From a phage, in NCBI GenBank assembly GCA_025829515.1, contig GCA_025829515.1_4865.1: 64,000 nucleotides of DNA, one strand, 5' to 3'. A model generated the notes under the pieces. That model ran no database searches. It was not told the DNA's origin and worked only from the letters and a program-made list of their open reading frames with translations. A program made the translations under genes and the position numbers. Shown in pieces: positions 4,306-36,809 of the stretch; the stretch's first letter is position 1; every line of letters starts with the position of its first letter.

Positions 4306-4312
4306 TAGTACC

Positions 4313-4351
4313 CCCTCTTACCTTCGGGTAAGAGGGTTTTATATTTATTTT
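4313..4351 (+). terminator. rho-independent terminator (UUCG tetraloop)
   Basis: ccctcttacc-ttcg-ggtaagaggg plus ttttatatttatttt; hairpin identical to the one at 30800-30823. A second hairpin gctctctcc-cgaa-ggagagagc follows at 4372-4393. Confidence 0.8.
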
Positions 4352-4419
4352 CCGAAAAGAAAATAAAAGGCGCTCTCTCCCGAAGGAGAGAGCTTATTCA
4401 CATCCACTTAGAGGTTAAC

Positions 4420-4566
4420 ATGAATACCTTTATACAACAACTGCGTCAGCAACAGCTGAAACAAGTCGCTTTTCAACAACGTCTGCAAGAGGTTAGCCGC
4501 CAACCGCAGACTTCCACCCGTACCATTAAAGGACTAGGAGGTGACATCATCTTCAATAAGAAGTAA
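4420..4566 (+). CDS. small Gln-rich protein, paralog 1 (48 aa)
   Basis: Not in track (<60 aa). GAGG 5 nt before ATG; same length and about 40% identity to 4679-4825 with shared C-terminal IKGLGG(D/E)I motif; own terminator. Confidence 0.55.
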   Translation: MNTFIQQLRQQQLKQVAFQQRLQEVSRQPQTSTRTIKGLGGDIIFNKK

Positions 4567-4575
4567 CACTAACCA

Positions 4576-4597
4576 GGGGTGCTCGAACACCCCTTTT
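4576..4597 (+). terminator. terminator hairpin
   Basis: ggggtg-ctcgaa-cacccc followed by tttt. Confidence 0.6.
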
Positions 4598-4678
4598 AAC
4601 TCCCGTGACAGTATATCAGTGCATTGTGTACCACCACAGCGCAGCGATATATTAACAACCTGCCTAAGGAGGCACTAC

Positions 4679-4825
4679 ATGGAACAACTACGTTCGCAAA
4701 TACTTAACCATTACGTTAAGCAAACCCAATTCAACCAACGTGTACAACAGTTGACTGCGCCCAAGCAGAACACTGTTCGTCGTATCAAGGGTTTAGGAGG
4801 TGAAATACTACTAAACAAAAGTTAA
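4679..4825 (+). CDS. small Gln-rich protein, paralog 2 (48 aa)
   Basis: AAGGAGG 6 nt before ATG; the track ORF 4541-4825 is a read-through extension across the terminator. Synonymous third-position differences relative to paralog 1 (att/atc, aaa/aag, gga/ggt). Confidence 0.6.
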   Translation: MEQLRSQILNHYVKQTQFNQRVQQLTAPKQNTVRRIKGLGGEILLNKS

Positions 4826-4838
4826 CATGAAATAACTC

Positions 4839-4866
4839 TTACCCGAGTGTTCCAGCACTCGGGTAA
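4839..4866 (+). terminator. hairpin, probable terminator
   Basis: 11 bp stem ttacccgagtg/cactcgggtaa; T-run lies about 27 nt downstream (4894-4901), so efficiency is uncertain. Confidence 0.45.
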
Positions 4867-4957
4867 TTCCATGCATATAAATAGTTCGTCGTATTTTTTT
4901 TGATCTTGGCAGGACGCATAAACTGCCCGTAGGGGAGCCTAAGCTCCCCAGTGTTCG

Positions 4958-6534: not shown

Positions 6535-7059
6535 ATGCAAATTCGTTTTAGTCCACCGTGGGAAGTTCAATCTAACATAGATAAAGGGGCTGGCGTTAAA
6601 AAGTTGGAGGAACTCCAAGCAAGCTTCTTTAACTGGTTATATGACTGCTCGTCGGGCTTTAGTTCCATCATACTGCCAGTGAGTGACCCTATTTCGATTT
6701 ATAAATCGATTATGGCACCACCTGCACTTCCGACTCTTTATTATGACCAGGTCTTAAACCTGGTTGAGAAAGGTACGAATGAAACCCTTGCTGATTTATA
6801 TGGGGAATCATTCGACGGTCGTTTACGTTGGGTGTTCTCACAACGTGGCGATGTTGTTGTGGCGTCTTTTGCAGAAGCTAAATCCGGACCGGGTTTTTCT
6901 TTAAGTGAAGACCACGCTGCGAAAAAGATGTTCTGCGCAGAACTTTTTAAATATATGCGTCCCAAGACTCGTGTCGTGGATGATACGTTCAGTACGTCGA
7001 CGCAGTTTGCTGCGCACGAAGTGCTGACGCAGTTGTACGCATGTCATTTATCTAAATAA
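6535..7059 (+). CDS. hypothetical protein (174 aa)
   Basis: ATG at 6535 preferred over track start 6481, which would overlap the divergent - strand gene; GGAG at 6521-6524. Confidence 0.6.
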   Translation: MQIRFSPPWEVQSNIDKGAGVKKLEELQASFFNWLYDCSSGFSSIILPVSDPISIYKSIMAPPALPTLYYDQVLNLVEKGTNETLADLYGESFDGRLRWVFSQRGDVVVASFAEAKSGPGFSLSEDHAAKKMFCAELFKYMRPKTRVVDDTFSTSTQFAAHEVLTQLYACHLSK

Positions 7060-7071
7060 GGTAAACTTGAA

Positions 7072-22545: not shown

Positions 22546-23118
22546 ATGTCGCAGTCTTTGCAAGAAGCCTCGACGGATGTGTTGGATGTTCTTATCCAGG
22601 CGGGCACCAATAAATTAAGCCTGGAAGAGAGTAACCGACTAAAAACAGCCGCCCAGACCGCTTTGGGAAGTGATGTTGAAATTGATGTCACTAAACCTGC
22701 TAACGTGATTCTTACTTCTTTACGCCCCCTCATTCTTGAGCAGGTGGGGAACATGGCGAAAACGTTTGAATCGCAAGCAAAAGCCGCTGTAGAAAGCATG
22801 GATGAAAAGCTCGCCAAAGAAACGTTATTGACCCTGTGGCCAAATTTGAAAGGTCCGCAGAAAGTCCTTATCGTTTTGTTGGTGCTGACCACTGTGGTGA
22901 TTACTGGCGCGATGGCCTGGGACACGCACCTGCATTATCCACAGGAGTTAACGGATGTGCTGATTGTGGCGCTCTTACCTTTGTTTGCTCAGGCCGTGTT
23001 CTTTACATGGCCGATTAAGACGCTTGCTTACAATTCGATGGCCATTGGTGCCAAGGTTGTTGAATACAAGCTGAATAAGAGCAACGCGAAGCAACAGACT
23101 ACCGCACCTAAAGAGTAA
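22546..23118 (+). CDS. membrane protein (190 aa)
   Basis: GGAGG upstream; two hydrophobic segments (VLIVLLVLTTVVITGAMAW, VLIVALLPLFAQAVFF). Confidence 0.7.
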   Translation: MSQSLQEASTDVLDVLIQAGTNKLSLEESNRLKTAAQTALGSDVEIDVTKPANVILTSLRPLILEQVGNMAKTFESQAKAAVESMDEKLAKETLLTLWPNLKGPQKVLIVLLVLTTVVITGAMAWDTHLHYPQELTDVLIVALLPLFAQAVFFTWPIKTLAYNSMAIGAKVVEYKLNKSNAKQQTTAPKE

Positions 23119-23122
23119 TTAA

Positions 23123-23167
23123 GCCCTCTTCTCCTCCTGGAGAAGAGGCTTCTTATTTTTTTTTATT
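23123..23167 (+). terminator. rho-independent terminator
   Basis: cctcttctcc-tcct-ggagaagagg followed by a long T-run. Confidence 0.8.
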
Positions 23168-23215: not shown

Positions 23216-23854
23216 ATGCAATTACAATTTCGTCAACGGTCTGTACTACTACCGTTTAGCGCTATATTAGGTTCGTTTACCAAAATGCTGTCTGTGGATT
23301 TTACTGCAGCTGAGAAAGAAGCGCTGTTATTGGCGGCAGTCGAAGAAGTATTGTGGGAGGCGTTTTACGTAGTGCCGTTTCGTAGATGCTTAAACGCCCC
23401 GTATGTTGAAGGGCAGTTTGTCAGCGCGCTTTCCGCTGCGATTACCAAACGTAAACTAAATGCCATGGCGCATGTCAAAGAGATCACCGCGCAACGAGGA
23501 CGGATATTCGCTACCATCAGAAATGTGTTAATTAAAGAAGGGTTTCTTGCAGATGCGTTAGGTCCCGAGGTTCCTTGGGAACCGGGTCATCCACCGCGTC
23601 AGTTTGACCACGGGTACAAGTTAAGTATAATTATGCCACGCGGTAAGCGTGACGTCTCATTGGGGAAATGGTTACAGATAAGTTGGGTTCGTCCTACTAT
23701 CGATTGGCAAGAAATGTCGGTCAATCGCTATCTGGAACACCTGGCAAAAACACCGGCACAGTTTCACCGTTCAACAATCCTGCCGCTACACTTGCTGTTA
23801 AAACCGTCCCTGTCATTGGCAGAAGCCAGATACCTGCTTAGTGGAGAGAAGTGA
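23216..23854 (+). CDS. hypothetical protein (212 aa), coupled to downstream GNAT
   Basis: AAGGA upstream; stop overlaps the GNAT start (ATGA). Confidence 0.7.
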   Translation: MQLQFRQRSVLLPFSAILGSFTKMLSVDFTAAEKEALLLAAVEEVLWEAFYVVPFRRCLNAPYVEGQFVSALSAAITKRKLNAMAHVKEITAQRGRIFATIRNVLIKEGFLADALGPEVPWEPGHPPRQFDHGYKLSIIMPRGKRDVSLGKWLQISWVRPTIDWQEMSVNRYLEHLAKTPAQFHRSTILPLHLLLKPSLSLAEARYLLSGEK

Positions 23855-24336
23855 TGCTTGTTATTAATGTGGTCGAGGATAAGATTCCCGCGAATGTTTA
23901 TCCTGAACTGGTTGAATGGGTACGCGACTTAAACAGTATTCGCGAGGAGCCTATTAAACTCACGATGTTTGTTGAGGATGATATCGTGCGGGGAATCATG
24001 GCATGGGAACCTGGCCATTTGGTCTATATGGTTGTGCCCGAAGAATCGCGGCGGGGCGGTGTCGGCAGATTTATGCTTAAGTATCTTCAGCAGAACTCCG
24101 ATCGTAAACACATCAGCTGTCGTGTTCACCCGACCAACATTCCCGCGCTAGGATTCTTTCACCAACAAGGCTTCCAGATTGACCGATGGTATATTGCTGC
24201 TGACGGCCAACGGTATTTTCGTATGACGAACTACAATGTTATTTCGTCACACACGCCGCCGGAGGAAAAGCTTTTAACTCATTACGCTGAAAGCGTTCCC
24301 ATTTTTCTTTCGATGGCAGAAGGTCATTTCGTCTAA
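23851..24336 (+). CDS. GNAT-family N-acetyltransferase (161 aa)
   Basis: Acetyl-CoA loop-like RRGGVGRFML and C-terminal GFFHQQGFQI. Confidence 0.65.
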   Translation: MMLVINVVEDKIPANVYPELVEWVRDLNSIREEPIKLTMFVEDDIVRGIMAWEPGHLVYMVVPEESRRGGVGRFMLKYLQQNSDRKHISCRVHPTNIPALGFFHQQGFQIDRWYIAADGQRYFRMTNYNVISSHTPPEEKLLTHYAESVPIFLSMAEGHFV

Positions 24337-24353
24337 ACGAGCGAGAGTGTATA

Positions 24354-24830
24354 ATGATACGTGTTGCTTACGAAACACGAGATACGGATGGAACCCGTAT
24401 AAACGTCATCCGCCGTGTGGAGCTTGTTCCTCAGCATGAACTGAATATTGCAGACAGTTCGCTTAGGGGCACTCCTGTTAAGATTCTGAATCTTACGAGA
24501 TGTTCTTTTCATCACAGTAAGACATCACCAGCAATACGGTCCAGTAAAAGAAAAAGTTATGCCGATTTAAAACGTCGGTTGTCCCGGCATTTTCGTCGGA
24601 GTGCCTGGAAGGCTTTAGTTGAGGTTTTGGTCGACGAGCACCTTATCCAGAGGTTGGAGTGGGAAGAAGTTCTCAGGGAAGCGGGCTATCCAACAAAACC
24701 TTTCTCTTATCACTGGCATCACTTCAAAAAACAGTTCCATGATGCCTTACAGGTATCGCCAAACACTCGCAACATGATTCACCGTTTGGAGAAAATGGAC
24801 TGGCTTCTACCCTATCTGGAAGAGGACTAG
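24354..24830 (+). CDS. hypothetical protein (158 aa)
   Basis: ORF in operon context. Confidence 0.65.
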   Translation: MIRVAYETRDTDGTRINVIRRVELVPQHELNIADSSLRGTPVKILNLTRCSFHHSKTSPAIRSSKRKSYADLKRRLSRHFRRSAWKALVEVLVDEHLIQRLEWEEVLREAGYPTKPFSYHWHHFKKQFHDALQVSPNTRNMIHRLEKMDWLLPYLEED

Positions 24831-24832
24831 AT

Positions 24833-25222
24833 ATGATGCGTGCTGTATTAGCTGTGTTTATAGTCTGCGTTACTGCGCCAGTAAACGCCTTTACCATTCA
24901 GGACTTCCCGCAGTATAAACCGATGTGGGAAACTGACGCACCTGTGAAATTCAGCGACAAAGATGAACCAGTCGTGACGGTGGAAAATGGTGAGTTTGCC
25001 GTGGTTAACTACGGACGTTCTGAACTGTGTCCAGGCGGTGGCTTTTATCTCGTTAACACAAAGCGCAAGACGTACCAGCCAATAGATGCGGGTACGTGTT
25101 CGTCGAAAGTTAAAGCGACAATTGCCCCGTCAGTACGAACACACTGCAGAGTTAATAACCTACGGTTAACTTTTTGGGTAGGTAAAGAAATTTCCGCACG
25201 GTATCCTTTGTACGATTATTAA
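24833..25222 (+). CDS. predicted secreted/periplasmic small protein (129 aa)
   Basis: Signal-peptide-like N-terminus MMRAVLAVFIVCVTAPVNA; terminator follows. Confidence 0.65.
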   Translation: MMRAVLAVFIVCVTAPVNAFTIQDFPQYKPMWETDAPVKFSDKDEPVVTVENGEFAVVNYGRSELCPGGGFYLVNTKRKTYQPIDAGTCSSKVKATIAPSVRTHCRVNNLRLTFWVGKEISARYPLYDY

Positions 25223-25229
25223 ACACAGC

Positions 25230-25268
25230 GTATAGGGGCTTCGGCCCCTATACTGTTTATTATTTTCC
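25230..25268 (+). terminator. rho-independent terminator (UUCG tetraloop)
   Basis: gtataggggc-ttcg-gcccctatac plus T-rich run. Confidence 0.8.
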
Positions 25269-25313
25269 TGTGAAGTATTATGACCCCCCTTAATCAAATA
25301 CCAGGAGCGAGGC

Positions 25314-25931
25314 ATGTCTTTTGTTATTGACTTTAACCACCATCATAGTCAAACCTTGCTCGATTTAGTCAATGCTTTTAATGCTGAAACCGTTTATACG
25401 CCCCTGACCACAGAACGTATCCGTGTGGAGAGTTATGGTCCACCGGAACCGGACGGTCGTGTAAGTGCTTTGCTGACTAATAAGAGTAAGCCAGATGACT
25501 ATGTGGTTGTGCGTTACCGCAAATTGAGCTTAAATGATATAATCACATTGGGACCTGAACATCTCACGTGGTTTGATTTGTCGAAAGGTAAACCGGCCGA
25601 TTTGCGCGTATGGTCTGAACCTGCAATGGCCAGTTTTGAATCGGCGTGTGCAGAACGCGGCATCGTTGTAAGTAAGGCGTGGGAAAACCCCGCGCAATGC
25701 CACGTAGAGTACGACATCCTGACCGATCGATATATCCTCGTCTATGAATGTGAATCGTTTGTTTACGAATCACGCACACGTATTACGCTACCGTACCATA
25801 TCGGCCAAGACTTAACCAAGACAACGCTGCCTGGTCTGGAATACGACTTGGCTGGTTTCTGGGGGCGTAAGCTGTTAGAAGAAGTGACTATCACGAAGCT
25901 TAACGGTTTTCGTTATCGTGTGTTTGTTTAA
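25314..25931 (+). CDS. hypothetical protein (205 aa)
   Basis: ORF with AGGAG upstream; flanked by terminators. Confidence 0.7.
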   Translation: MSFVIDFNHHHSQTLLDLVNAFNAETVYTPLTTERIRVESYGPPEPDGRVSALLTNKSKPDDYVVVRYRKLSLNDIITLGPEHLTWFDLSKGKPADLRVWSEPAMASFESACAERGIVVSKAWENPAQCHVEYDILTDRYILVYECESFVYESRTRITLPYHIGQDLTKTTLPGLEYDLAGFWGRKLLEEVTITKLNGFRYRVFV

Positions 25932-25936
25932 GACAC

Positions 25937-25978
25937 TACCCTCGCCCGTTTAGCGAGGGTAGGTATTTATTTTTTTCT
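25937..25978 (+). terminator. rho-independent terminator
   Basis: taccctcgc / gcgagggta stem followed by atttatttttttc. Confidence 0.75.
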
Positions 25979-26012
25979 TACGAATCGTCCACTCCGTATA
26001 GGAGGTAAGTCC

Positions 26013-26612
26013 ATGAAAAAGATTTATAAAATTGCGGTAATCGGTTCTCGGAAGACTGATGAAGATACCATGTCTGAAATGTACATGCGATTGTTACGTG
26101 GGTTTAATGCGCTGCACGCCAAAGATTACACGATTCATTTTTCCTCTGGCGGCTGCTGGTGTGGTCCAGACCAATTGCAATTCCGATTTGCCCGACAGTG
26201 GGCGAATACAATCGACCAAGATACCGGCAAGAAAGTGGTGTGGGATGATGAGTTCATTTGTTACCTACCCGATGAGAAAAAGCTCTGGCTCAAGAAACAG
26301 AATCCCAACGTAGAGTTCCGTGTAATCCCTCAGGATGACCGCTATCGTGAGATAGTAGGTAAGCTTCATCCCGCGCCAGAAAAGCTCCAGGAGTTCGCCT
26401 GGGCGCTTCATGGCCGTAATCTGAATATAATTATGGGCGATGATTTAGCAACGCCTGTAGACGCAGTTTATTACTCTGCGCCTTTAGATAAACAAGGTAA
26501 TCCGACCGGCGGTACTGCCATGGGCGTGAAATACGCTAAGCAGTGTGGTATTCCTTGTTACCACCATGCGCTTGAAGGACATCTGTGGCTTGAGAGCTTG
26601 TGCTTATTATGA
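26013..26612 (+). CDS. SLOG/DprA-like Rossmann-fold protein, putative (199 aa)
   Basis: AGGAGG upstream; pattern IAVIGSRK ... SSGGCWCGPD ... TGGTAMGVKYAKQCGIPCY resembles the Gly-rich loops of the DprA/LOG (SLOG) superfamily. Motif-level only. Confidence 0.35.
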   Translation: MKKIYKIAVIGSRKTDEDTMSEMYMRLLRGFNALHAKDYTIHFSSGGCWCGPDQLQFRFARQWANTIDQDTGKKVVWDDEFICYLPDEKKLWLKKQNPNVEFRVIPQDDRYREIVGKLHPAPEKLQEFAWALHGRNLNIIMGDDLATPVDAVYYSAPLDKQGNPTGGTAMGVKYAKQCGIPCYHHALEGHLWLESLCLL

Positions 26613-26642
26613 CCACGTTGCCTTTAATCAGAGGTCGCTATT

Positions 26643-26915
26643 ATGCAAACTACCAGTTTAGCTCGTCGTTTGTGGGAAGCATTCTTCCCTACGCCGTCAA
26701 AACCGATTAAGAAGGTGACTAGCCTTCGCTTGTTCCCAGGCTCCGAGGATGAGTTCTTCGATTACCTGGAACGCCACGGTTTTGATTCGAAAGTCGCACC
26801 ACAAGAAAATGACCCAATTCAGACAGTTTACACCACGCCGGATACGGGAGAGATATTTGCCTTGTGTGTTCGATGGCCACATCGCAACTACTACTATACT
26901 TTGACGCAGATGTAA
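26643..26915 (+). CDS. hypothetical protein (90 aa)
   Basis: ORF with GAGG upstream. Confidence 0.6.
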   Translation: MQTTSLARRLWEAFFPTPSKPIKKVTSLRLFPGSEDEFFDYLERHGFDSKVAPQENDPIQTVYTTPDTGEIFALCVRWPHRNYYYTLTQM

Positions 26916-26925
26916 GGAGCAGGGG

Positions 26926-28059
26926 ATGTCGACGCTCGATTTAGATTTAGAAGTCCTGACTGACGACTACGATCGCCTGGTCGCACTCGAAGGTCTGGGA
27001 GTTAAGCCCGACTTCCCTGCGGTTTGCGCGATCCGTCAGCGTTGGTGCTTAACCGACGACGGTGAAGATATGTTGGTTGCTCGTGAATCGCGCGAAGCGA
27101 TGGAGCGTGCTCAGTTTATGACTGATACTGACCCGCGGGCTGGCATCCATCGCGCAGCAGGGCGCATTACTGCGAAAGCTGTTAAAGGTACTGGAAAGTT
27201 AGTGGGTGCTGGACTAGGTGCAACCGCAAAGGGCGCGGGTAAACTCTCGAAAAAGCTCGCATTACGCTTTTACGATTTCGCGGAAGCGCTAGCGAAAGAA
27301 CAAGCCGACCGTTTGAAAGAAATAACTTCGAAAGCTGCTTTCATGGAACGTAAGCTCAATAAGCTTAAAACGCGAATGTCACTGCTAGATGACCACAAAA
27401 CACTCGCTGCGGTCGACGTTCACACGAGTAGCTGGACGTCTAAAATTTGCTTTGAAGATCGACCCGATTTTGAAGCGTGTGTTAAGTTTTCTAAACAAAC
27501 AAATGCGTACGAAGGCGTCGTGCAAAAGTACACGGTTTACACACGCACCGCTCTGAAGAAAAGCAAAGCATTCGAAGGGCCGGGCTTAAAACAAATCAGC
27601 AAGTCCACGAACTGGGCAGTTAAGCGTGCTGCTGGGTTGCTTGGCATCATCGATCCCTTTAAAAAGGTGGAAGCTTTTCCTGTCCCTGGAAATATCGTTG
27701 TGGTTGAGCACCATAGTGGTAAGGTCAGTTGGGCAATTGCGCGTGACGGTGAGTATGGTGAAACCATTAAATCGCTGGATATGCATCAGTGTGGGAAAGC
27801 AATAGAGGCTGTGGAAGCACTTATCAAATCTATTGCTGCACGTGGAACAAAGAACCGTGTTGTGGGCTACACCGGCATTTACGAAGAAGTGGAAGCGATG
27901 AAGTCCGAGCTTAAGAACCTAGAAGGGGATGAGCTGAAGGAGGCCACGTTACGTTACCGTAATGCAATGGCGATGGAAGACGCTTTCACCACGGCGTTGG
28001 TACGTGTGGCGGAGGGTCTAATGGAGTGGACGAAGCAATCGTTGGCTGAGGTGAAATGA
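26926..28059 (+). CDS. hypothetical protein (377 aa), coupled to downstream GNAT
   Basis: AAGGAG upstream; stop overlaps the GNAT start (ATGA). Confidence 0.7.
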   Translation: MSTLDLDLEVLTDDYDRLVALEGLGVKPDFPAVCAIRQRWCLTDDGEDMLVARESREAMERAQFMTDTDPRAGIHRAAGRITAKAVKGTGKLVGAGLGATAKGAGKLSKKLALRFYDFAEALAKEQADRLKEITSKAAFMERKLNKLKTRMSLLDDHKTLAAVDVHTSSWTSKICFEDRPDFEACVKFSKQTNAYEGVVQKYTVYTRTALKKSKAFEGPGLKQISKSTNWAVKRAAGLLGIIDPFKKVEAFPVPGNIVVVEHHSGKVSWAIARDGEYGETIKSLDMHQCGKAIEAVEALIKSIAARGTKNRVVGYTGIYEEVEAMKSELKNLEGDELKEATLRYRNAMAMEDAFTTALVRVAEGLMEWTKQSLAEVK

Positions 28060-28523
28060 TGAAAATTGTTTTTGTCACCAAGCCCAACTCTCCGTATGGA
28101 AAGAAATATTACGCCGACTTGTTAGGACTACACAACAAGTTATACGACGATCAGAAAATAAAACTTGCCGACTTAAACGGTCGTGAAGGGTTTAATCAAA
28201 TCTCAAAACTGGAGGAGGTTTGGGGTGAAGGTACGCTGTGCGCTTGCGCCGTTGATGACCGTGGTGTGGCTGTTGGCTTCATCACCTTTGGCTACACCAA
28301 AAAGGGACAACGTTTCCTCTGGGTATATAACTTTTTTGTAGATGAATCGGTTCGTTCACAAGGCGTTGGTCATGAACTGATCGAAGCCGTAGAGAACTAT
28401 GGCAAATCAAAAGGTTGCGCGTGGATGCAGCTTAACGTGCTCGGTAATAACGACCGTGCTATTGCGTTTTATGAACGTTTCGGATTCCGAACTGAATACC
28501 AGGATATGGTAAAGGAGCTTTAA
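28056..28523 (+). CDS. GNAT-family N-acetyltransferase (155 aa)
   Basis: VRSQGVGHELIEAV acetyl-CoA loop and C-terminal AIAFYERFGF. Confidence 0.7.
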   Translation: MMKIVFVTKPNSPYGKKYYADLLGLHNKLYDDQKIKLADLNGREGFNQISKLEEVWGEGTLCACAVDDRGVAVGFITFGYTKKGQRFLWVYNFFVDESVRSQGVGHELIEAVENYGKSKGCAWMQLNVLGNNDRAIAFYERFGFRTEYQDMVKEL

Positions 28524-28524
28524 C

Positions 28525-29133
28525 ATGGTAGCTGTCCGCAGCGTGCCACATCAGACTGGCTCGCGATATACTTTTTGTGTAAAGCGTTTTGGGGCAAGAA
28601 ATCGCCCTGGTTGGAAGGTGGTACGTGCGATGGGACAGTTCTGGCAATTACCGCCCGGCACGTTAAAATATTTTTCAGTAGACAGAATAACCCGGTTCTT
28701 AAATGCGGCTGACCCAAGTCAACGGTCCAGTTTTATAGCAGGGGTTGTTTGTCGTCCCGATGGGAAAACACGCGATGCAACCACACGTGGAATTTACTGG
28801 ACAGGACAGAACGCGTTTCAGGTTGGCTTACCTTGCCTGAAGTGTGAAGTGACGCCGTTTAATGGCCCCTATGCCGATGCGTACTTCACCGGTATCTTTG
28901 TGTCGTTCCCAGACGACCCGTCTTTAAACTACTTTCTATCGGTAGACAAAGACGTCAGTATTGATACCTTCTACAAATACTTGTTGTTTTACAGCCGGTA
29001 TATCCGCGTGACTCCTGTGCATGAAGATTGGTATTATAAAAATCCCTTGAACTATGGGAGGGACAGGAGACTAGAAGGATGTTCTATCGAGAGCTTCAAC
29101 TCTGTACCGCAGCGCTCCATGGCGCTAATGTGA
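28525..29133 (+). CDS. hypothetical protein (202 aa)
   Basis: ORF immediately after the GNAT gene; 3' end overlaps the next ORF by about 55 nt. Confidence 0.6.
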   Translation: MVAVRSVPHQTGSRYTFCVKRFGARNRPGWKVVRAMGQFWQLPPGTLKYFSVDRITRFLNAADPSQRSSFIAGVVCRPDGKTRDATTRGIYWTGQNAFQVGLPCLKCEVTPFNGPYADAYFTGIFVSFPDDPSLNYFLSVDKDVSIDTFYKYLLFYSRYIRVTPVHEDWYYKNPLNYGRDRRLEGCSIESFNSVPQRSMALM

Positions 29134-29450
29134 GCAAGAACGGGGACCTGGAAGACGTCGCGCAAGCCTTACGGACTGTGTCGGAGGTTGACCAGGTCGA
29201 TATCGACGCTAAGTATTTAGGCGGCGGTGTAAAGCGTATTCAGTTGACCGTGCGAGCCAAACATGGCAGCTGCTCGTTACATTTTCGAGTCAGTGCGGAT
29301 TATTTCCTGGTACTGCGCTCCACATTCAGTCACGATGGTCGGACTCACCGGGTTCGGTGGATGCACGACATTACTAAATTTGGCTACCCGCTTGCAGAAC
29401 AACGTAAAGTCGTGCATGACTTTATGGCTGCAGTCGTTGCGGGGTTTTAA
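29079..29450 (+). CDS. hypothetical protein (123 aa)
   Basis: ORF with GAAGG upstream; overlaps the previous gene in a different frame. Confidence 0.5.
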   Translation: MFYRELQLCTAALHGANVSKNGDLEDVAQALRTVSEVDQVDIDAKYLGGGVKRIQLTVRAKHGSCSLHFRVSADYFLVLRSTFSHDGRTHRVRWMHDITKFGYPLAEQRKVVHDFMAAVVAGF

Positions 29451-29462
29451 GGGGAGACTGTG

Positions 29463-30059
29463 ATGTCTGAGATGATTCTCGATTCGCTGTTTTTGATTAC
29501 GGTTGCAAACATCAATAAAAACGGCAATCTTCCAGAATACGTAGACATAAGTCGTCATGGCTTTAAGCGTCGTTATCAAATCGGTAAGGTACTAGAGATT
29601 GCCTGTTTAGTAACGAACATGCGTAGACCGGTGGAAGGCTGTAGCGTTAAACATGCACAGATGATACTCGGGCGTGCTATTTCAGAAGTACGTCGTAAGC
29701 GTCGTCGCGCACCGTATCGCTTTTATCCTAACTCCACCAAACAGGTGGTCGGTGAGGGGGAAGGTGTGGTTGATTTGCGTGAGGCCAGTTGCAATGTAGG
29801 TGGTATTGCACGTGACTGGTTAATGAGCATTATCAGTAAGCATCCACGTACGCCTACACCGCAAGAAGGGCAGGCGGTACTCGCACTTATGCGTAAGACC
29901 CATTTGGTGATTACTGACACACCAAACCAGGCAGCACGAATGCAGCACTATTTAGCATGTCGTGGATTTACCACACTTGCAGTACCTTCAGAATACGCAG
30001 CTGATATTAAACTTCCGACAGTTCCCGAGTGGTCTGAACCGAAAGTTGATCATCAGTGA
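29463..30059 (+). CDS. hypothetical protein (198 aa)
   Basis: ATG at 29463 with AAGGGGAG 6 nt upstream (track start 29460 is GTG). Confidence 0.65.
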   Translation: MSEMILDSLFLITVANINKNGNLPEYVDISRHGFKRRYQIGKVLEIACLVTNMRRPVEGCSVKHAQMILGRAISEVRRKRRRAPYRFYPNSTKQVVGEGEGVVDLREASCNVGGIARDWLMSIISKHPRTPTPQEGQAVLALMRKTHLVITDTPNQAARMQHYLACRGFTTLAVPSEYAADIKLPTVPEWSEPKVDHQ

Positions 30060-30065
30060 GTTATA

Positions 30066-30109
30066 CCCACTCCTTCGGGAGTGGGTCGACTCTATTCTTT
30101 TTTTTCTTT
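30066..30109 (+). terminator. rho-independent terminator (UUCG tetraloop)
   Basis: cccactcc-ttcg-ggagtggg plus a T-run. Confidence 0.8.
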
Positions 30110-30169
30110 ACGTCTGGTCGCTATATTGTGACACCACTACAATTAATTAAACTTTTGGGGAAGAATAAA

Positions 30170-30793
30170 ATGTTAAACTCAGTGGCGCTGGATGGTCCAG
30201 ATTTTTCTGGCAAATCAACACTCGCTATAACGATTCAAGCGATGTTGCGCTCCGCTGGCGTTAATGCCATCATCGTCAATCACCCGACGAATACCACTGA
30301 AGCCGGTATTAGTGCACGCTCTCTGGTTATCCAGCACGCCTCTAATGAACGTATTGCCAAAGCGATGTGTCTGGATTTCCAATACACGATGGATTTCGTT
30401 GTACCAGAGCACGATGTCGTTATTTTTGACCGTTTTTGTCAATCGACTATTGTCTACCAGGGCGTAGATGGTAAAGGGGAAGTTTTCCGTTCGCGGGTAT
30501 TAGACCACATTAACGCACCAAAGCTTTACGTGGCAACCGATGTATCTTACGAAACCGCCACAGAACGCTTTAAGAAGCGCGTAGAAGCACAAGGTAAGCA
30601 CTGGGATGATGAGGTACTGACAGCGAAGTATCTGCGCACACAGACCGATTGGGACGCCTTACGCGACCATTACCGTTTTGCGTTCCACATCACTACAGAC
30701 GGTGGTGATAAGTTTCCACTGATGCGAATTACAGCAGACGACGATATGGCGTTACAAGCCGCCCGTATCGTTGAACGTATTCTGGCAGGTTAG
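30170..30793 (+). CDS. tmk: thymidylate kinase-like nucleoside monophosphate kinase (207 aa)
   Basis: P-loop LDGPDFSGKST near the N-terminus and DRFCQSTIVYQG matching the Tmk DR(H/Y)xxSxxAYQG motif; internal ATG 30170 chosen because track start 30056 lies inside the terminator. Confidence 0.6.
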   Translation: MLNSVALDGPDFSGKSTLAITIQAMLRSAGVNAIIVNHPTNTTEAGISARSLVIQHASNERIAKAMCLDFQYTMDFVVPEHDVVIFDRFCQSTIVYQGVDGKGEVFRSRVLDHINAPKLYVATDVSYETATERFKKRVEAQGKHWDDEVLTAKYLRTQTDWDALRDHYRFAFHITTDGGDKFPLMRITADDDMALQAARIVERILAG

Positions 30794-30798
30794 TTGTA

Positions 30799-30836
30799 CC
30801 CCTCTTACCTTCGGGTAAGAGGGCATTGTCTTTTTT
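30799..30836 (+). terminator. rho-independent terminator (UUCG tetraloop)
   Basis: ccctcttacc-ttcg-ggtaagaggg, identical 24-nt hairpin to 4313-4336, then a T-run. Confidence 0.8.
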
Positions 30837-30880
30837 ACAGATCAGAACAGTCCTATGCTTTTTGCTTCCAGTCCACTAAA

Positions 30881-30908
30881 TTTCAGATATATATTACCTT
30901 AGTGAGAG
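30881..30908 (+). promoter_or_regulatory. conserved promoter-like motif, copy 2
   Basis: TTTCAGATATATATTACCTTAGTGAGAG; same downstream leader (aatcgactattaatctaaaggagtatt) as copy 1. Confidence 0.55.
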
Positions 30909-30955
30909 TTGTCGTTAAACTCTCTAATCGACTATTAATCTAAAGGAGTATTCTA

Positions 30956-31321
30956 ATGCGTTTTAAACATCAAACCGTTGTGTTGGCAAAGAAAGCATTT
31001 CTGGTTCGTCTCTCTTACATTATTACTCGTGTCACTGCGAAGGATGTTACGCAGAAAGACATTGCATTGTTGGTAGGCTGCTCACCGTCACAAATCTCTG
31101 CGATTAAAAATGAACGCGAGAAAGCCGTGACTATCGAAACTCTGATGCGTGTTGCCGATACACTGCGCCTGAATTACGAAATCGTTTACCGTTCCATCAA
31201 CGGCAAATGCCGCCATAGCTTCAAAATTGAATCCTGCATCGACTACATGAACAACTGTCCTATCCGGGTACGAGAAACAGGACTTAAAGTCATGGCACGT
31301 AAACCTTCTGCAGTGATGTAA
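30956..31321 (+). CDS. XRE-type helix-turn-helix DNA-binding protein (121 aa)
   Basis: QKDIALLVGCSPSQISAIKNE matches the HTH_XRE pattern; first gene after promoter cassette copy 2. Confidence 0.55.
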   Translation: MRFKHQTVVLAKKAFLVRLSYIITRVTAKDVTQKDIALLVGCSPSQISAIKNEREKAVTIETLMRVADTLRLNYEIVYRSINGKCRHSFKIESCIDYMNNCPIRVRETGLKVMARKPSAVM

Positions 31322-31358
31322 ATTAAGGAGCATTTATGAACATAGATGAGGGCTTCGA

Positions 31359-31748
31359 ATGAACTGGTATGTGAGCGGTATCACCCGTCGTGTAATGACG
31401 GAAGAGGATGATCGATGTAAACATCTTAAAGTGGGGTCTATAGCTCCACGTTATACGGCAGAGTGCGACCCATGGGGCCGCGAAACGTATTACATGTGCG
31501 AGAACTGCTGGGAAAAGCTGCAGGCTGAAATTGCAGCTGAAGAAGTGGTCTGCGACGATTGCAAAGGTACCTTCCCGAAACGGGATACTGTTGAGTGGAA
31601 ATGGCACGACTTTGACCCCAGTCAAGGGGATAAAGGACTTTGTATCTGTAATAACTGCGTGTCTTTACCGACACATTTAAACCGTGTAGAGAATGACCGT
31701 CGGGCATTTGAACACGACTGTCCAGAAGCAGCTTTCTGGGATAACTAG
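31359..31748 (+). CDS. Cys-rich zinc-finger-like protein (129 aa)
   Basis: Paired cysteines CENCW, CDDCKG, CICNNC; preceded by an 8-codon micro-ORF (31336-31362) that carries the strong SD and overlaps the start as ATGA. Confidence 0.6.
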   Translation: MNWYVSGITRRVMTEEDDRCKHLKVGSIAPRYTAECDPWGRETYYMCENCWEKLQAEIAAEEVVCDDCKGTFPKRDTVEWKWHDFDPSQGDKGLCICNNCVSLPTHLNRVENDRRAFEHDCPEAAFWDN

Positions 31749-31770
31749 TATAACCCTTAAGGAGTATATC

Positions 31771-32427
31771 ATGGCGAAGGCCCCTAAAACTGTAGCAAAA
31801 GATTCAATGGCAAGCAACGCGATTAAAGCCACAAAAACGCGTACTACCGAATCTCCACGCTCACCTACCATTCCTAAACCGGATGTAATTGTACCAATCA
31901 GTGAACGTCTGAAAACAATTCACATCGAGCGCGAATATCCGATTGACCTTGGTCAGGAAATCGTTGCGGTTAACCTTGGTAGCGACGTACGCTTTACCAT
32001 CTATAAAGGCGCGCATCTGAACAACATGGTGCTAACCCGCGGTGATGAAGTTATCGGTCTGTCTCGTTACGACACGCAAATCGAAAACATCTATCCGGTG
32101 TTTGCAGTAGCGATGTTGCGTTTGTTCATGCAGGATAAAGCCGACCTTTGTGGTCAGCTTGCGGGTATGGCGGATCGTGTTGGTCATATTCTGCCGACGC
32201 TGGTGAAACTGTACCCAGTTACGATTGACGTGGCGTTTACTACTGTAGACAACAACCACGGTTATATCGTGCTGACCAAAGACGGTAAAGTTATCGCTGG
32301 TAATCTGACTGATAACGAAGTGCAGAAGCATATGGACAAATTTGCGTTCATGGTGAATCGCTTGGCGCACGTCAGTGTCAAACATTCTGAAACTTGGACG
32401 ACGCTTGTCTCCAAACCTGAACTGTAA
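31771..32427 (+). CDS. hypothetical protein (218 aa)
   Basis: ATG at 31771 with AAGGAG upstream (track start 31693 is upstream in frame); terminator follows. Confidence 0.7.
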   Translation: MAKAPKTVAKDSMASNAIKATKTRTTESPRSPTIPKPDVIVPISERLKTIHIEREYPIDLGQEIVAVNLGSDVRFTIYKGAHLNNMVLTRGDEVIGLSRYDTQIENIYPVFAVAMLRLFMQDKADLCGQLAGMADRVGHILPTLVKLYPVTIDVAFTTVDNNHGYIVLTKDGKVIAGNLTDNEVQKHMDKFAFMVNRLAHVSVKHSETWTTLVSKPEL

Positions 32428-32430
32428 TCA

Positions 32431-32468
32431 TTAAGGGGTCTTCGGACCCCTTAATTTTTTGTCTTTTT
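32431..32468 (+). terminator. rho-independent terminator (UUCG tetraloop)
   Basis: ttaaggggtc-ttcg-gaccccttaa plus ttttttgtcttttt. Confidence 0.85.
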
Positions 32469-32516
32469 ACGCGTTATCCTCATGTTGTGACAGCATTACC
32501 TTTTGAGGGCATTACA

Positions 32517-33518
32517 ATGAAAACTGTGGCTAAATTGTTCCGCAGCAGCATTCGCTCTGCCGAGTTCCAAAATAACGTCGGTACCGATACTGTACGAGCA
32601 CGCCGCCTAAAAGAGTTTCTAAAGGACGAGACTTATTCTGTTTACGTGGTCCGGAATAAAGAAACCTGGGAGGGTTATTTAGTGGCCACCTATCGACACG
32701 GTGACCCTACACTAACCTGTCACTATTTTGAGGAGTTTGTACCTGGGGCGTTCGATAAAGTTGGTTTGGCCCTTGTGCTCGACCATACCGGATTCGAATA
32801 TATGTCGTGCCCAGCACCTACTGACGATGTTGAACAAAAACTGGTCGAAAAAGGGTTTGTTCTTTCAGATATCGTTTGGGCATGTCATTCTAAACTGTTT
32901 GACAAAGTAATCACCGCATCAGAAATCAAGATTATTTCTGGTGATGCATACGCAGAACTTACCAAGGAAGATAAAGACGTTATCCTGAATTTGATTAGCG
33001 GTGCAATTTGCGAAGAGTTAGAGTACGATGTGCGCGGCTACTATACACACATTGGTCCGTTAGCAGAAACAGTAATAGCAAGAATTCAGCACGCTAATGT
33101 GGAGACTGCAATTTGGCGAGACGGTCATGATATCGTCGGTATTGCCCAGATGCGCTTGGTTACACCAGGCGTCGTTGAACTTTCTGGTTTAACCGTTGCA
33201 CCTACGCACCGTAAACGTGGCATTGGTCGCCGGCTAATGGGCGCGCTATTCGATTTCGCACAACGTCATTCCGACCAAGTCTATATTGAAACAGCTGCTG
33301 ATAATAATCCAGCAAATCACCTGTACGGCAACATCTTACGTTGCAAGCAGGTACTGCGTACACTAACGTTGAAACGCGATCCTGAACTTATTAGCTGGAA
33401 ACGGGTGAATGGGAACCGCGCCGATCGAGTGCTGAAAGAAGAACCTAGCATTCCGGTGGAGACTACAACCAGGCTGACTATCAGTGATATGTTTCAATCT
33501 GGCATGAGAGGATGTTAA
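32517..33518 (+). CDS. two-domain protein with C-terminal GNAT acetyltransferase domain (333 aa)
   Basis: C-terminal VELSGLTVAPTHRKRGIGRRLMGALFDFA is a GNAT acetyl-CoA-binding motif; N-terminal about 200 aa unassigned. Confidence 0.6.
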   Translation: MKTVAKLFRSSIRSAEFQNNVGTDTVRARRLKEFLKDETYSVYVVRNKETWEGYLVATYRHGDPTLTCHYFEEFVPGAFDKVGLALVLDHTGFEYMSCPAPTDDVEQKLVEKGFVLSDIVWACHSKLFDKVITASEIKIISGDAYAELTKEDKDVILNLISGAICEELEYDVRGYYTHIGPLAETVIARIQHANVETAIWRDGHDIVGIAQMRLVTPGVVELSGLTVAPTHRKRGIGRRLMGALFDFAQRHSDQVYIETAADNNPANHLYGNILRCKQVLRTLTLKRDPELISWKRVNGNRADRVLKEEPSIPVETTTRLTISDMFQSGMRGC

Positions 33519-33521
33519 CGG

Positions 33522-34340
33522 GTGATAAAACCAATTTTAAAATGGATGGGTGGTAAGAGTCGTGTACTGCCCGAGCTGCTACAGGTGTTTCCGGATGCTG
33601 AGTATTTCGTTGAACCTTTTGTGGGCGCAGGGTCAGTGTTTTTAAACACTAAATACCCGAACTATATTCTCGGCGACACGAACCCGGACTTAATCGAGTT
33701 ACTGACCATGGCGCGCGATCGTCCGGAAGCGCTGATTCTGGAAGCAAAGGCGCTCTTTGCAAATGGGACGGACCGCGGTCTCTACATGGAACGGCGCGAG
33801 GGATTTAACAGCGAAGCAACCACGGGGAAACCTAATCTCCAGCGCGCCGCGATGTTCCTGTATCTTACACGTCATGGTTACAATGGTTTGTGCAGATACA
33901 ATCAGTCGGGTGGGTTTAACGTGCCCTATGGTCAACACCCGAACGGTGTCTATTTCCCTGAAGAGGAAATTCTGGCGTGGGCAAAACGTTGTTCGGAAAC
34001 CAACGTCGAGCTGCTCTGCGCGGACTTCCGCGACATCCTAAATAAGTGCCCATCTAACGCTGTGATATACGCCGACCCGCCCTACATCCCACTTTCGGAT
34101 ACGGCTAAACATGCGCAGTATCACAGCAAAGAATTTTCACAAGCTGACCACCGCGAGTTAGCGAAACTTTTAAAACAACAAGCTGCCGATGGCAATAAGG
34201 TCGTTCTGTCAAACGCAGATACGTTACTCACACGTGACATCTACTACGGTTTTACCTGGCGTGAAGTTCAGGTGGGCCGATATATGTCCGCCGATGCGAA
34301 TAAACGTAAAGCGGTGACAGAGCTAATCGGCACCTTATAA
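33522..34340 (+). CDS. dam: Dam-type DNA N6-adenine methyltransferase (272 aa)
   Basis: Dam signature blocks LKWMGGK, VEPFVGAGSVFLNT, LYLTRHGYNGLCRYN, FNVPYG and catalytic DPPY; GTG start. Confidence 0.92.
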   Translation: MIKPILKWMGGKSRVLPELLQVFPDAEYFVEPFVGAGSVFLNTKYPNYILGDTNPDLIELLTMARDRPEALILEAKALFANGTDRGLYMERREGFNSEATTGKPNLQRAAMFLYLTRHGYNGLCRYNQSGGFNVPYGQHPNGVYFPEEEILAWAKRCSETNVELLCADFRDILNKCPSNAVIYADPPYIPLSDTAKHAQYHSKEFSQADHRELAKLLKQQAADGNKVVLSNADTLLTRDIYYGFTWREVQVGRYMSADANKRKAVTELIGTL

Positions 34341-34349
34341 GGTACCAAC

Positions 34350-35153
34350 ATGCAACTATTTAATCTATACGGTATGGACAAAAATGACCTGACCGTAGAG
34401 TTTAGTGGTCGATTGACCACCTTGGGGCAACTCCGTGAACGGATTCAAGATTTGCGACCCGTCGCAGACCAAGAAGACGATCATTGGTTAGTGTTGAGCA
34501 ATAGCGGTCGTGCGCAAATGTATTTTCGTGGATGTCGTTCAGGTATTGTTTACTACATCTACGAGTTGCACGTGCTTTCCGAGCCCCTGTTCCACGAGTG
34601 GAAGCGTTTAACGCGACTCCTGGAAGTGCAGATGCTTGATATCACCTGTTTTCCGCATGACACCGAACATGCGGCATTGTACCAACGTCTGGGGTTCGAA
34701 GCTGTAACGAAGCGTGTGGAGATTACTGTCAGTCCGAAATACGGTTTTACGTCAGACCCATCGGTTGTCCCGTTGGAGACATTGTCATTAGAACAAACCC
34801 AAGATGTTTGCTATCTAATGCGACCTACGCTAAAAGACGCAGGAACGCGTGAGATGTTGGGTGAATTAGCAAATGGTTTTGTCTCTGCGTTCGTGGGGCT
34901 GCACGGCCAGAAACCGTTTTCATTAATGCTTTATAAGGAGTTCCCGAAGAGCATCATTACTGAGCAATTCTGCTGCCAAACTTTTGACCCGGTTGCTTAC
35001 TCGGTAGAGTTTCTAAAACACTACCACGCCATTTTGCATTTGGCGGGACAGAAAGGTAAGAAGGTCAACATGGGCGTTGCGATAGAGCACGAGTTTCCTT
35101 CTATCGAAGGGTTAGAGTATCGTGTAATCACGCATCACTACACCCTTGCGTAA
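34350..35153 (+). CDS. hypothetical protein (267 aa)
   Basis: ORF in operon; contains AALYQRLGFE, weakly GNAT-like. Confidence 0.65.
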   Translation: MQLFNLYGMDKNDLTVEFSGRLTTLGQLRERIQDLRPVADQEDDHWLVLSNSGRAQMYFRGCRSGIVYYIYELHVLSEPLFHEWKRLTRLLEVQMLDITCFPHDTEHAALYQRLGFEAVTKRVEITVSPKYGFTSDPSVVPLETLSLEQTQDVCYLMRPTLKDAGTREMLGELANGFVSAFVGLHGQKPFSLMLYKEFPKSIITEQFCCQTFDPVAYSVEFLKHYHAILHLAGQKGKKVNMGVAIEHEFPSIEGLEYRVITHHYTLA

Positions 35154-35162
35154 GGAGAGAAT

Positions 35163-35975
35163 ATGCTGAGAGTTATCGAACGCACGGAGAGGATTCTGGA
35201 CCGAACGTGGTTGGAAGACCGTAAAGCGTTATCGTTGTTAAACGATATCGATCCTTCCACGTTACAAGATGAACGTCGTCTTTACTACCGAATCTTTGAA
35301 GTTTTCAGTCGGGACACAGTTGCGCCCGACGCGATCGTGCTCTGTCTGGACCACGGATACATGTTAGAAGTTATCAACATGGTTCGTGCTTTAGACGCCC
35401 AGTTAACCTCGCTTGCGGATGCTTTACTCCGCTCAGCGGGGTGTAACTACGCGATGCATTTTACTCGTTCGGAAGGGGACGAATATGCTCGCATGGGCTT
35501 TTGTTGCGAAACGATAAACTACCGCAAAATTAATACATCGGTGCCAAGTCACGATGAGGATTTCTGTGGGGATGTCAGTTCGCTGTTCGATAGTAAGAAA
35601 GCGTTCTTGGATTGGGTTAGAATGCTTTACGGTACAAGCTCTATCTACTCAACGCTCGTCATGGGCGGGAGGATGATGTCATGGCGGAGCAGCGATAGTT
35701 ACAAACTGACAGTGCTCTCACATCGTGGACAACGCTGGGTTATTGGTGGATGGTTTACCGCAGAAGGGGTGGTTACCCTAAGCCGTGAGGAGTTCGGACT
35801 GTTGATGCACTGTATCCAGTCTGAATTACCGGTGGGGGATGAATTAGTTTACACTTACCACCAATATACTGGGGGACCAGCCGCAATGTGGTTATTAGAA
35901 AACGGTTGGCTACCCGAAAGTTATGTGTACGGACGTGCCCTGAAAACTACTAATGGAGAAAATAATGCAAATTAA
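35163..35975 (+). CDS. hypothetical protein (270 aa)
   Basis: ORF with AAGGAG upstream. Confidence 0.65.
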   Translation: MLRVIERTERILDRTWLEDRKALSLLNDIDPSTLQDERRLYYRIFEVFSRDTVAPDAIVLCLDHGYMLEVINMVRALDAQLTSLADALLRSAGCNYAMHFTRSEGDEYARMGFCCETINYRKINTSVPSHDEDFCGDVSSLFDSKKAFLDWVRMLYGTSSIYSTLVMGGRMMSWRSSDSYKLTVLSHRGQRWVIGGWFTAEGVVTLSREEFGLLMHCIQSELPVGDELVYTYHQYTGGPAAMWLLENGWLPESYVYGRALKTTNGENNAN

Positions 35976-36243: not shown

Positions 36244-36283
36244 TTCGCCATTGTATGACCCTTAAACACCGTTGAGGTTAACT

Positions 36284-36766: not shown

Positions 36767-36809
36767 GGCCCGCCTCCTTGCCCACGGGTGAGGAGGTCCC
36801 TTTTTATTT
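36767..36809 (+). terminator. rho-independent terminator
   Basis: cctcct ... aggagg stem with GC-rich loop, then tccctttttattt. Confidence 0.7.

Follow-up and report, generated by a model that had tools for sequence, protein, structure and literature searches.

A collinear SPN3US-type jumbo phage region with three separate GNAT acetyltransferases, one of them a head protein in SPN3US

The window, a 64,000-nt stretch of phage DNA (contig GCA_025829515.1_4865.1 of GenBank assembly GCA_025829515.1), contains between positions 23,216 and 35,975 three GNAT-type acetyltransferase domains, here called GNAT1, GNAT2 and GNAT3, and a Dam-type DNA methyltransferase. This region is best read as a segment of an SPN3US-type jumbo phage genome, conserved and collinear, that carries three independent GNATs, each in a context of its own, and in which GNAT2 (gp95) would be delivered from the capsid via the adjoining head protein gp94. 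Taken as a whole, this reading is moderately probable, and its parts differ in strength. The identities of the genes and the virion location of GNAT2 and gp94 are close to certain; a polyamine substrate for GNAT2 is conceivable, at somewhat less than even chances, and the loading of GNAT2 into the head through gp94 is a slightly more tentative proposal.

The original prediction for this region saw a cluster of three GNATs and Dam and likened the pairing of GNATs with partner proteins to toxin or host-takeover modules. It is largely correct as an observation and partly supported as an interpretation: the GNAT domains and Dam hold, and the toxin–antitoxin analogy does not. The genes are already catalogued, being annotated in SPN3US and dozens of its relatives (the SPN3US records name acetyltransferases, Dam and thymidylate kinase). 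For one of the GNATs a crystal structure is available, and another is known from an enzyme assay and from virion proteomics, so that the observation itself is public-record knowledge.

The acetyltransferase GNAT2 and the head protein gp94

GNAT2 (gp95; 28059..28523, 154 amino acids (aa); like the other genes of the region, on the plus strand) is 100% identical to SPN3US YP_009153389, and its start overlaps by 1 nt the end of the gene for gp94 (26926..28059, 377 aa), an internal head protein with an N-terminal propeptide (sites VALE22 and VARE54) that is 98.9% identical to SPN3US gp94. Scheuch et al. 2023 (PMC10052503) analysed doubly purified SPN3US virions and tailless heads by mass spectrometry (MS) and assigned gp94, gp95 and gp97 to the head. 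The peptide-spectrum matches (PSM) amounted to 48 in virions and 34 in heads for gp94, and to 41 and 32 for gp95 (PMC10052503). Scaled to the 12 copies of the portal protein, a crude spectral count gives about 4 copies of gp94 and about 7 of gp95 per head. In the same study, gp95 was not processed by the prohead protease, and gp94 was flagged as a probable substrate of this enzyme (PMC10052503).

The assignment of gp94 to the ejection-protein family is based on profile similarity and on its processing sites. It matches phrog_2497, annotated as 'internal head protein' (E=4e-88), a group that also contains gp53 and gp54, the two most abundant ejection proteins of SPN3US. Its match to the Pfam family phiKZ_IP (18.8 bits) lies below the cut-off of 27, BLASTP detects no similarity between gp94 and gp53 or gp54, and the published paralogue family A consists of gp53 and gp54 only. 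The three proteins nevertheless have the propeptide motif IR(K/Q)RW-x7-12-(V/L)A(R/Q)E↓S in common (↓, cleavage position), located in gp94 within the N-terminal part encoded at 26926-27090; the SPN3US genes for gp53 and gp54 lie at 3606-4883 and 4961-6220 of the locus examined. The glutamate of this motif in gp54, E124, is an experimentally mapped cleavage site (PMC10052503). In gp94, the sites VALE22↓G and VA(R/G/H)E~54↓S are kept in 9/9 family members from four genera, a set that includes the second paralogues of phiEaH2 and Kwan, and they fit the published logo of the prohead protease gp245, V-A-x-E↓S (PMC10052503). The MS coverage of gp94 lies solely C-terminal of both sites (PMC10052503). 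Table S6 of that study names 'ARE-51' for gp94, and the residue count used here places the glutamate at 54. An N-terminal propeptide with prohead-protease sites is thus a feature that gp94 has in common with gp53, gp54 and the internal proteins of phiKZ.

The neighbourhood of GNAT2 and gp94 is constant. A scan of IMG/VR recovered full-length GNAT2 orthologues solely in ten contigs of about 240 kb, and all 10 loci contain the block gp92-gp93-gp94(x1-2)-GNAT2-gp96-gp97, with GNAT2 starting at most 20 nt from the head-protein gene. Among the families examined, those of GNAT1 and GNAT2 occur only in SPN3US-like phages. The validated spermidine N-acetyltransferase (SAT) of phage Goslar is distantly related to GNAT2 and has regulator paralogues as neighbours instead of head genes, and the Moabite GNAT, with 30% identity to GNAT2, has no head-protein neighbour either; the pairing of GNAT2 with a head protein is therefore a feature of the SPN3US-like clade.

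The substrate of GNAT2 can be approached through its orthologues. Candidate phage SATs were expressed in E. coli BL21 delta-speG by Li et al. (PNAS 2023, PMC9992855), who found that Caitlin YP_009292176 and a 154-aa phiEaH2 protein produced N-acetylspermidine in E. coli, and that SPN3US YP_009153389, the protein identical to GNAT2, yielded none above background. Both SAT-active proteins are syntenic orthologues of GNAT2 (phiEaH2, 72% identity; Caitlin, 53%), each encoded directly downstream of a gp94-type gene, and they share with GNAT2 all 21 invariant alignment columns, among which are motif A and the AFY-motif tyrosine. Since the conserved residues are all kept in the SPN3US protein, its negative result may reflect expression, a missing partner or another substrate. 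GNAT2 is hence an orthologue of active SATs at the same genomic position, with an activity that the SPN3US copy did not reproduce; it belongs to the SAT class by orthology, and only tentatively by function.

The ejection proteins in SPN3US heads, which pass into the cell, have a combined mass above 40 MDa (PMC7411985). GNAT2 has neither a propeptide nor a cleavage site of its own and so would need a carrier. In the sequence of events proposed here, gp94, a low-copy and divergent member of the ejection-protein family with a cleaved propeptide, would bring GNAT2 into the prohead. GNAT2 would then exit the capsid along with the DNA and the remaining ejection proteins; its substrate, in the first moments of infection, would be a small amine (for the orthologues, spermidine) or a protein. 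A stricter version is rather unlikely: here gp94 would be a cargo loader dedicated to gp95, its propeptide would carry the GNAT into the head, and once injected the enzyme would acetylate spermidine or a protein of the host ahead of any phage gene expression.

Alt and the other internal proteins of T4, like the ejection proteins of phiKZ and SPN3US, travel in the head and enter the host with the DNA, and GNAT2 and gp94 are likewise head components. GNAT2 differs from T4 Alt in that it transfers acetyl groups instead of ADP-ribose and has no targeting propeptide of its own, and in that its injection is what we infer from its location. If the proposal is correct, GNAT2 would represent a virion-delivered acetyltransferase effector, a counterpart of T4 Alt with another chemistry and with an adaptor in place of the targeting peptide. 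In the accessible literature, a search for acetyltransferases packaged in jumbo-phage virions found none described. The link between the separate papers has likewise been absent, namely that the GNAT of a spermidine-acetylating orthologue group is a head component, encoded by a gene that overlaps that of a processed ejection-family protein. The gp94-gp95 pair bears on the capsid targeting of the 42 unprocessed SPN3US head proteins and on the enzymatic activities that jumbo phages inject before the early vesicle and the nucleus form. With SPN3US amber-mutant genetics and established virion proteomics at hand, the questions raised by this pair are testable at small scale.

Several points weigh against delivery of GNAT2 through gp94. 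The 42 SPN3US head proteins without propeptides mean that the unprocessed state is not special to GNAT2 (PMC10052503), and the identical SPN3US protein gave no N-acetylspermidine in E. coli, so that the substrate of GNAT2 may be a different one. The adjacency of gp94 and GNAT2 lies within a wholly collinear block and is therefore not independent evidence, and the distant GNAT relatives of Goslar and Moabite have no head-protein neighbour. The estimate of about 4-7 copies per head rests on crude spectral counting relative to the portal protein.

Polyamines are counter-ions of packaged phage DNA, and GNAT2 could reside in the head incidentally, or have a task there during assembly, for instance the acetylation of head proteins or of polyamines packaged along with it, instead of being an injected effector. 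The missing propeptide and the low copy number would suit this explanation, as would the action of the orthologues on spermidine (PMC9992855). Contamination is made less likely by consistent PSM across three replicates, both of doubly purified virions and of tailless heads, at a head/virion ratio near 1 (PMC10052503), and the supply of acetyl-CoA for a reaction within the capsid would be doubtful. An incidental or purely in-head role is accordingly judged improbable, and delivery from the capsid stays the preferred reading for GNAT2.

The gp94-type gene is duplicated in tandem in phiEaH2 (locus positions 3876-4865 and 4878-6029) and in Kwan (6821-7819 and 7832-8974). In both phages, it is the copy next to the GNAT that is more closely related to gp94, and the upstream copy lacks the Gly/Ala/Lys-rich segment that follows the propeptide.

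A collinear block with three separate GNATs

Among published records, the 12.8-kb region finds full-length matches in 23 jumbo-phage genomes at 95-99% identity, and these include the Salmonella phages SPFM, SPLA, SEGD1 and SPN3US of the genus Seoulvirus. Nucleotide identity to SPN3US-like phages amounts to 96-99% along the entire stretch. Gene by gene, it corresponds to SPN3US gp87-gp107 (SPN3US_0087-0107; JN641803 / NC_027402), with GNAT1 98.8% identical to its SPN3US counterpart, and the same gene content and order are found in Erwinia phages of the genera Machinavirus, Erskinevirus and Wellingtonvirus. The term 'accessory', as applied to the cluster originally, is a poor label for a block that is collinear in at least four phage genera and encloses tail and head structural genes, and an accessory island was rejected on these grounds.

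The three GNAT domains and the adjacent Dam are borne out by profile searches. With a Pfam cut-off of 20.7 bits for Acetyltransf_1, GNAT1 (gp88) scores 26.2 bits, GNAT2 65.0 bits and GNAT3 (gp104) 53.6 bits, the last over residues 205-280 of a 343-aa open reading frame (ORF), in agreement with the suggested C-terminal position of this domain in a two-domain protein. All three contain motif A (R-x-x-G-x-G/A), which binds the pyrophosphate of acetyl-CoA, in the forms RRGGVG (GNAT1), RSQGVG (GNAT2) and RKRGIG (GNAT3). The motif is kept across the family alignments of GNAT1 and GNAT2; in the six-member GNAT3 family, its invariant part is the G-I-G core only. Dam (gp105) reaches 255.6 bits against TIGR00571 (cut-off 114.85) and 182.7 bits against PF02086, has the catalytic DPPY motif in the context YADPPYIP, and begins 3 nt after GNAT3.

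The GNATs do not form one module, since BLASTP among the 20 proteins of the region detects no pairwise similarity between them and since they belong to three separate transcription units; a single GNAT module was rejected for the same reasons. An hhalign probability of 92% between the GNAT1 and GNAT2 families reflects the general relatedness of GNATs. SPN3US has four annotated acetyltransferases, the fourth of which, gp191, lies far outside the window. The presence of three of these four within 17 genes has a probability of about 0.04 in a simulation with random placement, which is marginal. The fourth protein (JN641803, 172536-173024; 162 aa) is of the GNAT type, falls into phrog_3810 (E=1.3e-42) as GNAT2 does, is 22% identical to GNAT2, and appears in the SPN3US virion MS as a non-virion trace only. 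Its degenerate motif A (RRRKTM) suggests that it may be inactive.

Five strong hairpins with 10-11-bp stems followed by T-runs, at 23125, 25230, 25936, 30800 and 32430, divide the region into predicted transcription units. The first (23125..23148; a 10-bp stem in which 6 pairs are GC, followed by a T-rich tail) precedes gp87 and starts unit A (gp87-gp88-gp89-gp90), which ends at the hairpin after gp90 (25230-25253). Unit B consists of gp91 alone and ends at 25936-25962. Unit C (gp92-gp93-gp94-gp95-gp96-gp97-gp98-tmk) ends after tmk at 30800-30823, and unit D (gp101-gp103) after gp103 at 32430-32455. Unit E (gp104-dam-gp106-gp107-gp108-gp109) runs on to the head-protein gene gp109, and a further hairpin terminator lies just past 36766, at about 36767-36800. 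The GNATs are thus spread over three of the five units (A, C and E). The terminator hairpins are very regular, GC-rich with tetraloops that are often TTCG-like, and downstream of each lies a T-rich stretch whose last letters are TTAC; their appearance suggests that the phage's own transcription system uses them to delimit its units.

Promoter-like motifs 3' of the terminators (TCCACT.., TATGACCC and TATATTAC) do not occur in numbers above chance. The motif TATGACCC is found at 25279-25286 and 36254-36261, in the short intergenic stretches upstream of gp91 (tail) and gp109 (head), and again at 1378-1385. A looser pattern has 6 matches against 3.9 expected, and three exact copies are too few for a test; the motif could be a late-promoter element.

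The overlap of GNAT1 and GNAT2 with their upstream genes had been described as an ATGA coupling. The overlaps exist, in another form. The junctions read aagTGATGctt for gp87/gp88 and aATGATGaaa for gp94/gp95. The crystallized construct of GNAT1 (PDB 7DQG) begins with MLVINV, and virion MS of SPN3US found an intact gp95 N-terminus, M followed by K (PMC10052503). These two observations place the true starts at 23854 and 28059 and reduce the overlaps to 1 nt (TGATG). Such overlaps are unremarkable, because they occur at 5/35 junctions of the homologous SPN3US stretch, where gaps of 12 nt or less are present at 18/35. What had been seen as a repeated pairing of GNATs with partners is better explained by ordinary tight packing in conserved operons.

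The arrangement nonetheless resembles that of known toxin–antitoxin systems. In the TacT/TacA, AtaT/AtaR and KacT/KacA pairs, a small GNAT lies directly downstream of another gene and overlaps it, as is the case here, and the window pairs could be modules of this type, or abortive or host-killing modules, in which the GNAT acetylates charged tRNA and the upstream protein neutralises it. The order of a partner followed by a GNAT of about 155-160 aa with overlapping stop and start codons is reminiscent of GNAT/ribbon-helix-helix (RHH) operons, and an AtaT-like fold is present in the protein that forms the nuclear shell of these phages, so that GNAT folds derived from such systems do exist in the lineage (PMC9365700). 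The window pairs differ, however, from the known pairs in each respect that could be tested. The partners gp87 (212 aa) and gp94 (377 aa) match neither RHH/DUF1778 nor any other antitoxin family in Pfam at E<=0.1, and no TacT or AtaT chains are among the PDB sequence matches (E<=1 for GNAT1, E<=0.01 for GNAT2, E<=0.1 for GNAT3). No bacterial two-gene cassettes were found: gp87 has 12 relatives, and the GNAT1 family is restricted to phages. Furthermore, gp94 is a structural, processed head protein, and GNAT2 itself is packaged. GNAT2 orthologues were expressed in E. coli for metabolite scoring, and the accessible part of that report mentions no toxicity (PMC9992855). The suggested resemblance to toxin modules thus fails with regard to partner domain, TacT/AtaT similarity, distribution and the capsid nature of one partner, and a toxin–antitoxin function is extremely improbable.

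Host takeover, the second function envisaged originally, is plausible for GNAT2, given that SPN3US packages the identical protein in its head. A broader proposal would have all three GNATs acetylate host proteins, such as RNA polymerase or ribosomal proteins, in the manner of Rac from phiKMV-type phages. A comparative review by Iyer et al. predicts such a role for jumbo-phage GNATs in general (PMC7824862), the best matches that GNAT1 and GNAT3 have, weak as they are, belong to protein N-terminal or lysine acetyltransferases (RimI, YjaB-like PRK10514, Naa20/30), and the packaging of GNAT2 with the genome would suit an early modification of the host. These matches lie far below the cut-offs, however (rimI, 23-43 bits versus 86.4), so that the substrate class cannot be read from them, and the GNAT2 orthologues act on a small molecule, spermidine (PMC9992855). 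In addition, these phages bring their own RNA polymerases, which makes the need to retarget the host polymerase unclear. A common takeover function of all three enzymes is therefore considered unlikely, and independent roles for the three GNATs are preferred.

GNAT1, GNAT3 and Dam

GNAT1 (gp88; 23854..24336, 160 aa) is a stand-alone GNAT that follows gp87 with the 1-nt TGATG overlap described above. It is identical in 158/160 residues to PDB 7DQG_A, deposited as 'Putative acetyltransferase', with the substitutions I86V and H158Q, and its structure can therefore be considered solved. A search of the accessible literature on 7DQG found no paper, ligand or function. The GNAT1 family comprises 28 clusters, all of them 158-160-aa proteins of SPN3US-like phages, and an alignment of 14 members shows motif A with R66-x-x-G69, VEDD and YFRMTN as invariant elements. 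Its weak best matches are protein acetyltransferases (RimI, YjaB-like PRK10514, Naa20), far below the family thresholds.

The upstream gene gp87 (23216..23854, 212 aa) belongs to phrog_8034, for which no function is assigned, and has no match in Pfam or NCBIfam. Among 1.84 billion representative proteins it has 12 relatives of about 200-220 aa, except for one partial match to a protein of 1,903 aa; as judged from this search, gp87 is an ORFan restricted to the SPN3US-like phage clade. It adjoins GNAT1 in six genomes of four genera, with junctions that range from a 14-nt overlap to an 8-nt gap. Neither gp87 nor gp88 nor gp92 has been detected in the MS of SPN3US virions (PMC10052503). GNAT1 is probably an active, clade-specific enzyme that is not part of the virion and is made together with gp87.

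The C-terminus of GNAT1 (24240-24336) forms a tail of 30 residues past the GNAT core, TP(P/S)EE..L..F..VPIFLS, that is nearly invariant in four genera and may serve as a docking or regulatory peptide.

GNAT3 (gp104; 32517..33518, 333 aa) is the first gene of unit E and combines an N-domain of about 130 aa with the C-terminal GNAT, to which all Pfam and NCBIfam matches of gp104 are confined. This two-domain architecture is kept in Erwinia phages at about 29-31% identity. In the SPN3US virion MS, gp104 appears as a non-virion trace only (PMC10052503), and GNAT3 is probably an active, two-domain enzyme of the infected cell. It is followed by the Dam-family N6-adenine DNA methyltransferase gp105 (33522..34340), gp106 (34350-35153, phrog_9941) and gp107 (35163-35975, phrog_13677), of which the last two are conserved downstream of dam. 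Caitlin, ChrisDB, Kwan and SPAsTU all have the string GNAT3-dam-gp106. Its genes are 3-9 nt apart in the window, and Caitlin and ChrisDB show an overlap of 4 nt. Next comes a gp107 homologue, except in Kwan, which has a similar-sized protein without BLASTP similarity to gp107 at this position.

The tight order of GNAT3, dam and gp106 in four genera, followed by gp107 in three, could point to a DNA-modification module in which the GNAT acylates a base in the manner of phage Mu Mom, alongside adenine methylation. GNATs of the Mom type that act on DNA have been reported in other jumbo phages (PMC7824862). However, GNAT3, gp106 and gp107 have no profile match to Mom or to DNA-binding or DNA-modifying families, phiEaH2 keeps dam-gp106-gp107 without GNAT3, and unit E extends to the head gene gp109, so that co-transcription need not mean a joint function. 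Such a module is very unlikely, and GNAT3 is better regarded as an independent enzyme next to Dam.

The proposal that neighbouring proteins contain GNAT-like motifs is understandable by eye, and is not upheld by any tool for gp106, gp107 and the N-domain of gp104. The family profiles of these three give no GNAT match against PDB sequences. Pfam finds no GNAT in gp106-family members or in gp107, both gp106 and gp107 are also without an NCBIfam match, and motif A is absent from all three. Comparison of their families with true GNAT families by hhalign yields a probability of at most 13%, in a setting of low power where the true GNAT pair of GNAT2 and the GNAT3 C-domain reached 61% only. The N-halves of gp106 and gp107 match each other weakly (hhalign 54-61% over 32 columns). 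AlphaFold models of neighbour proteins have low confidence (predicted local distance difference test scores of 40.7 and 47.5) and are unreliable because the families are very narrow.

Other genes of the block

Unit A continues after GNAT1 with gp89 (24354-24830, phrog_9187) and gp90 (24833-25222, phrog_5248). Read by eye, the translation of gp90 starts (24833-24900) with the signal-peptide-like sequence MMRAVLAVFIVCVTAPVNA, and that of gp86 (22546-23118) has two long hydrophobic stretches. The tail protein gene gp91 (25314..25931), the sole gene of unit B, is flanked by terminators on both sides; its product is represented by 41 PSM in SPN3US virions and is absent from tailless heads (PMC10052503). 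The first gene of unit C, gp92 (26013..26612), encodes the DprA-like, SLOG-type protein that had been suspected among the neighbours of the GNATs (phrog_768, E=1.8e-47).

Downstream of GNAT2, unit C includes gp96 (28525-29133), gp97 (29079-29450; the third head protein of this unit according to the SPN3US MS, PMC10052503) and gp98 (29460-30059), all three with PHROG matches for which no function is assigned. The unit ends with the thymidylate kinase gene tmk (gp100; 30170..30793; PF02223, E=6.8e-15). An ORF that begins at the GTG at 30056 is probably over-extended, as the Pfam match starts at its residue 45 and relatives are annotated as 207 aa; the start is more likely the ATG at 30170. Unit D contains a helix-turn-helix protein, gp101 (30956-31321; HTH_3, E=2e-7), and gp102 (31359-31748) and gp103 (31771-32427), both with PHROG matches.

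In ten of the SPFM genomes (SPFM1, 6-10, 12, 14, 15 and 20; LR535901, LR535904-08, LR535911-13, LR535917), the matches to the GNATs and their neighbours are broken into 3-6 pieces with 65-98% amino acid identity, annotated as 'hypothetical proteins' of odd length. This pattern suggests error-rich assemblies rather than real divergence.

The stretch between gp98 and tmk (30060-30169 in the window) is an indel hot spot. SPN3US has at this site the gene gp99 (759 nt), which has no counterpart in the window, the remaining differences between the two being point changes, and Caitlin, ChrisDB and phiEaH2 hold two or three other genes here.

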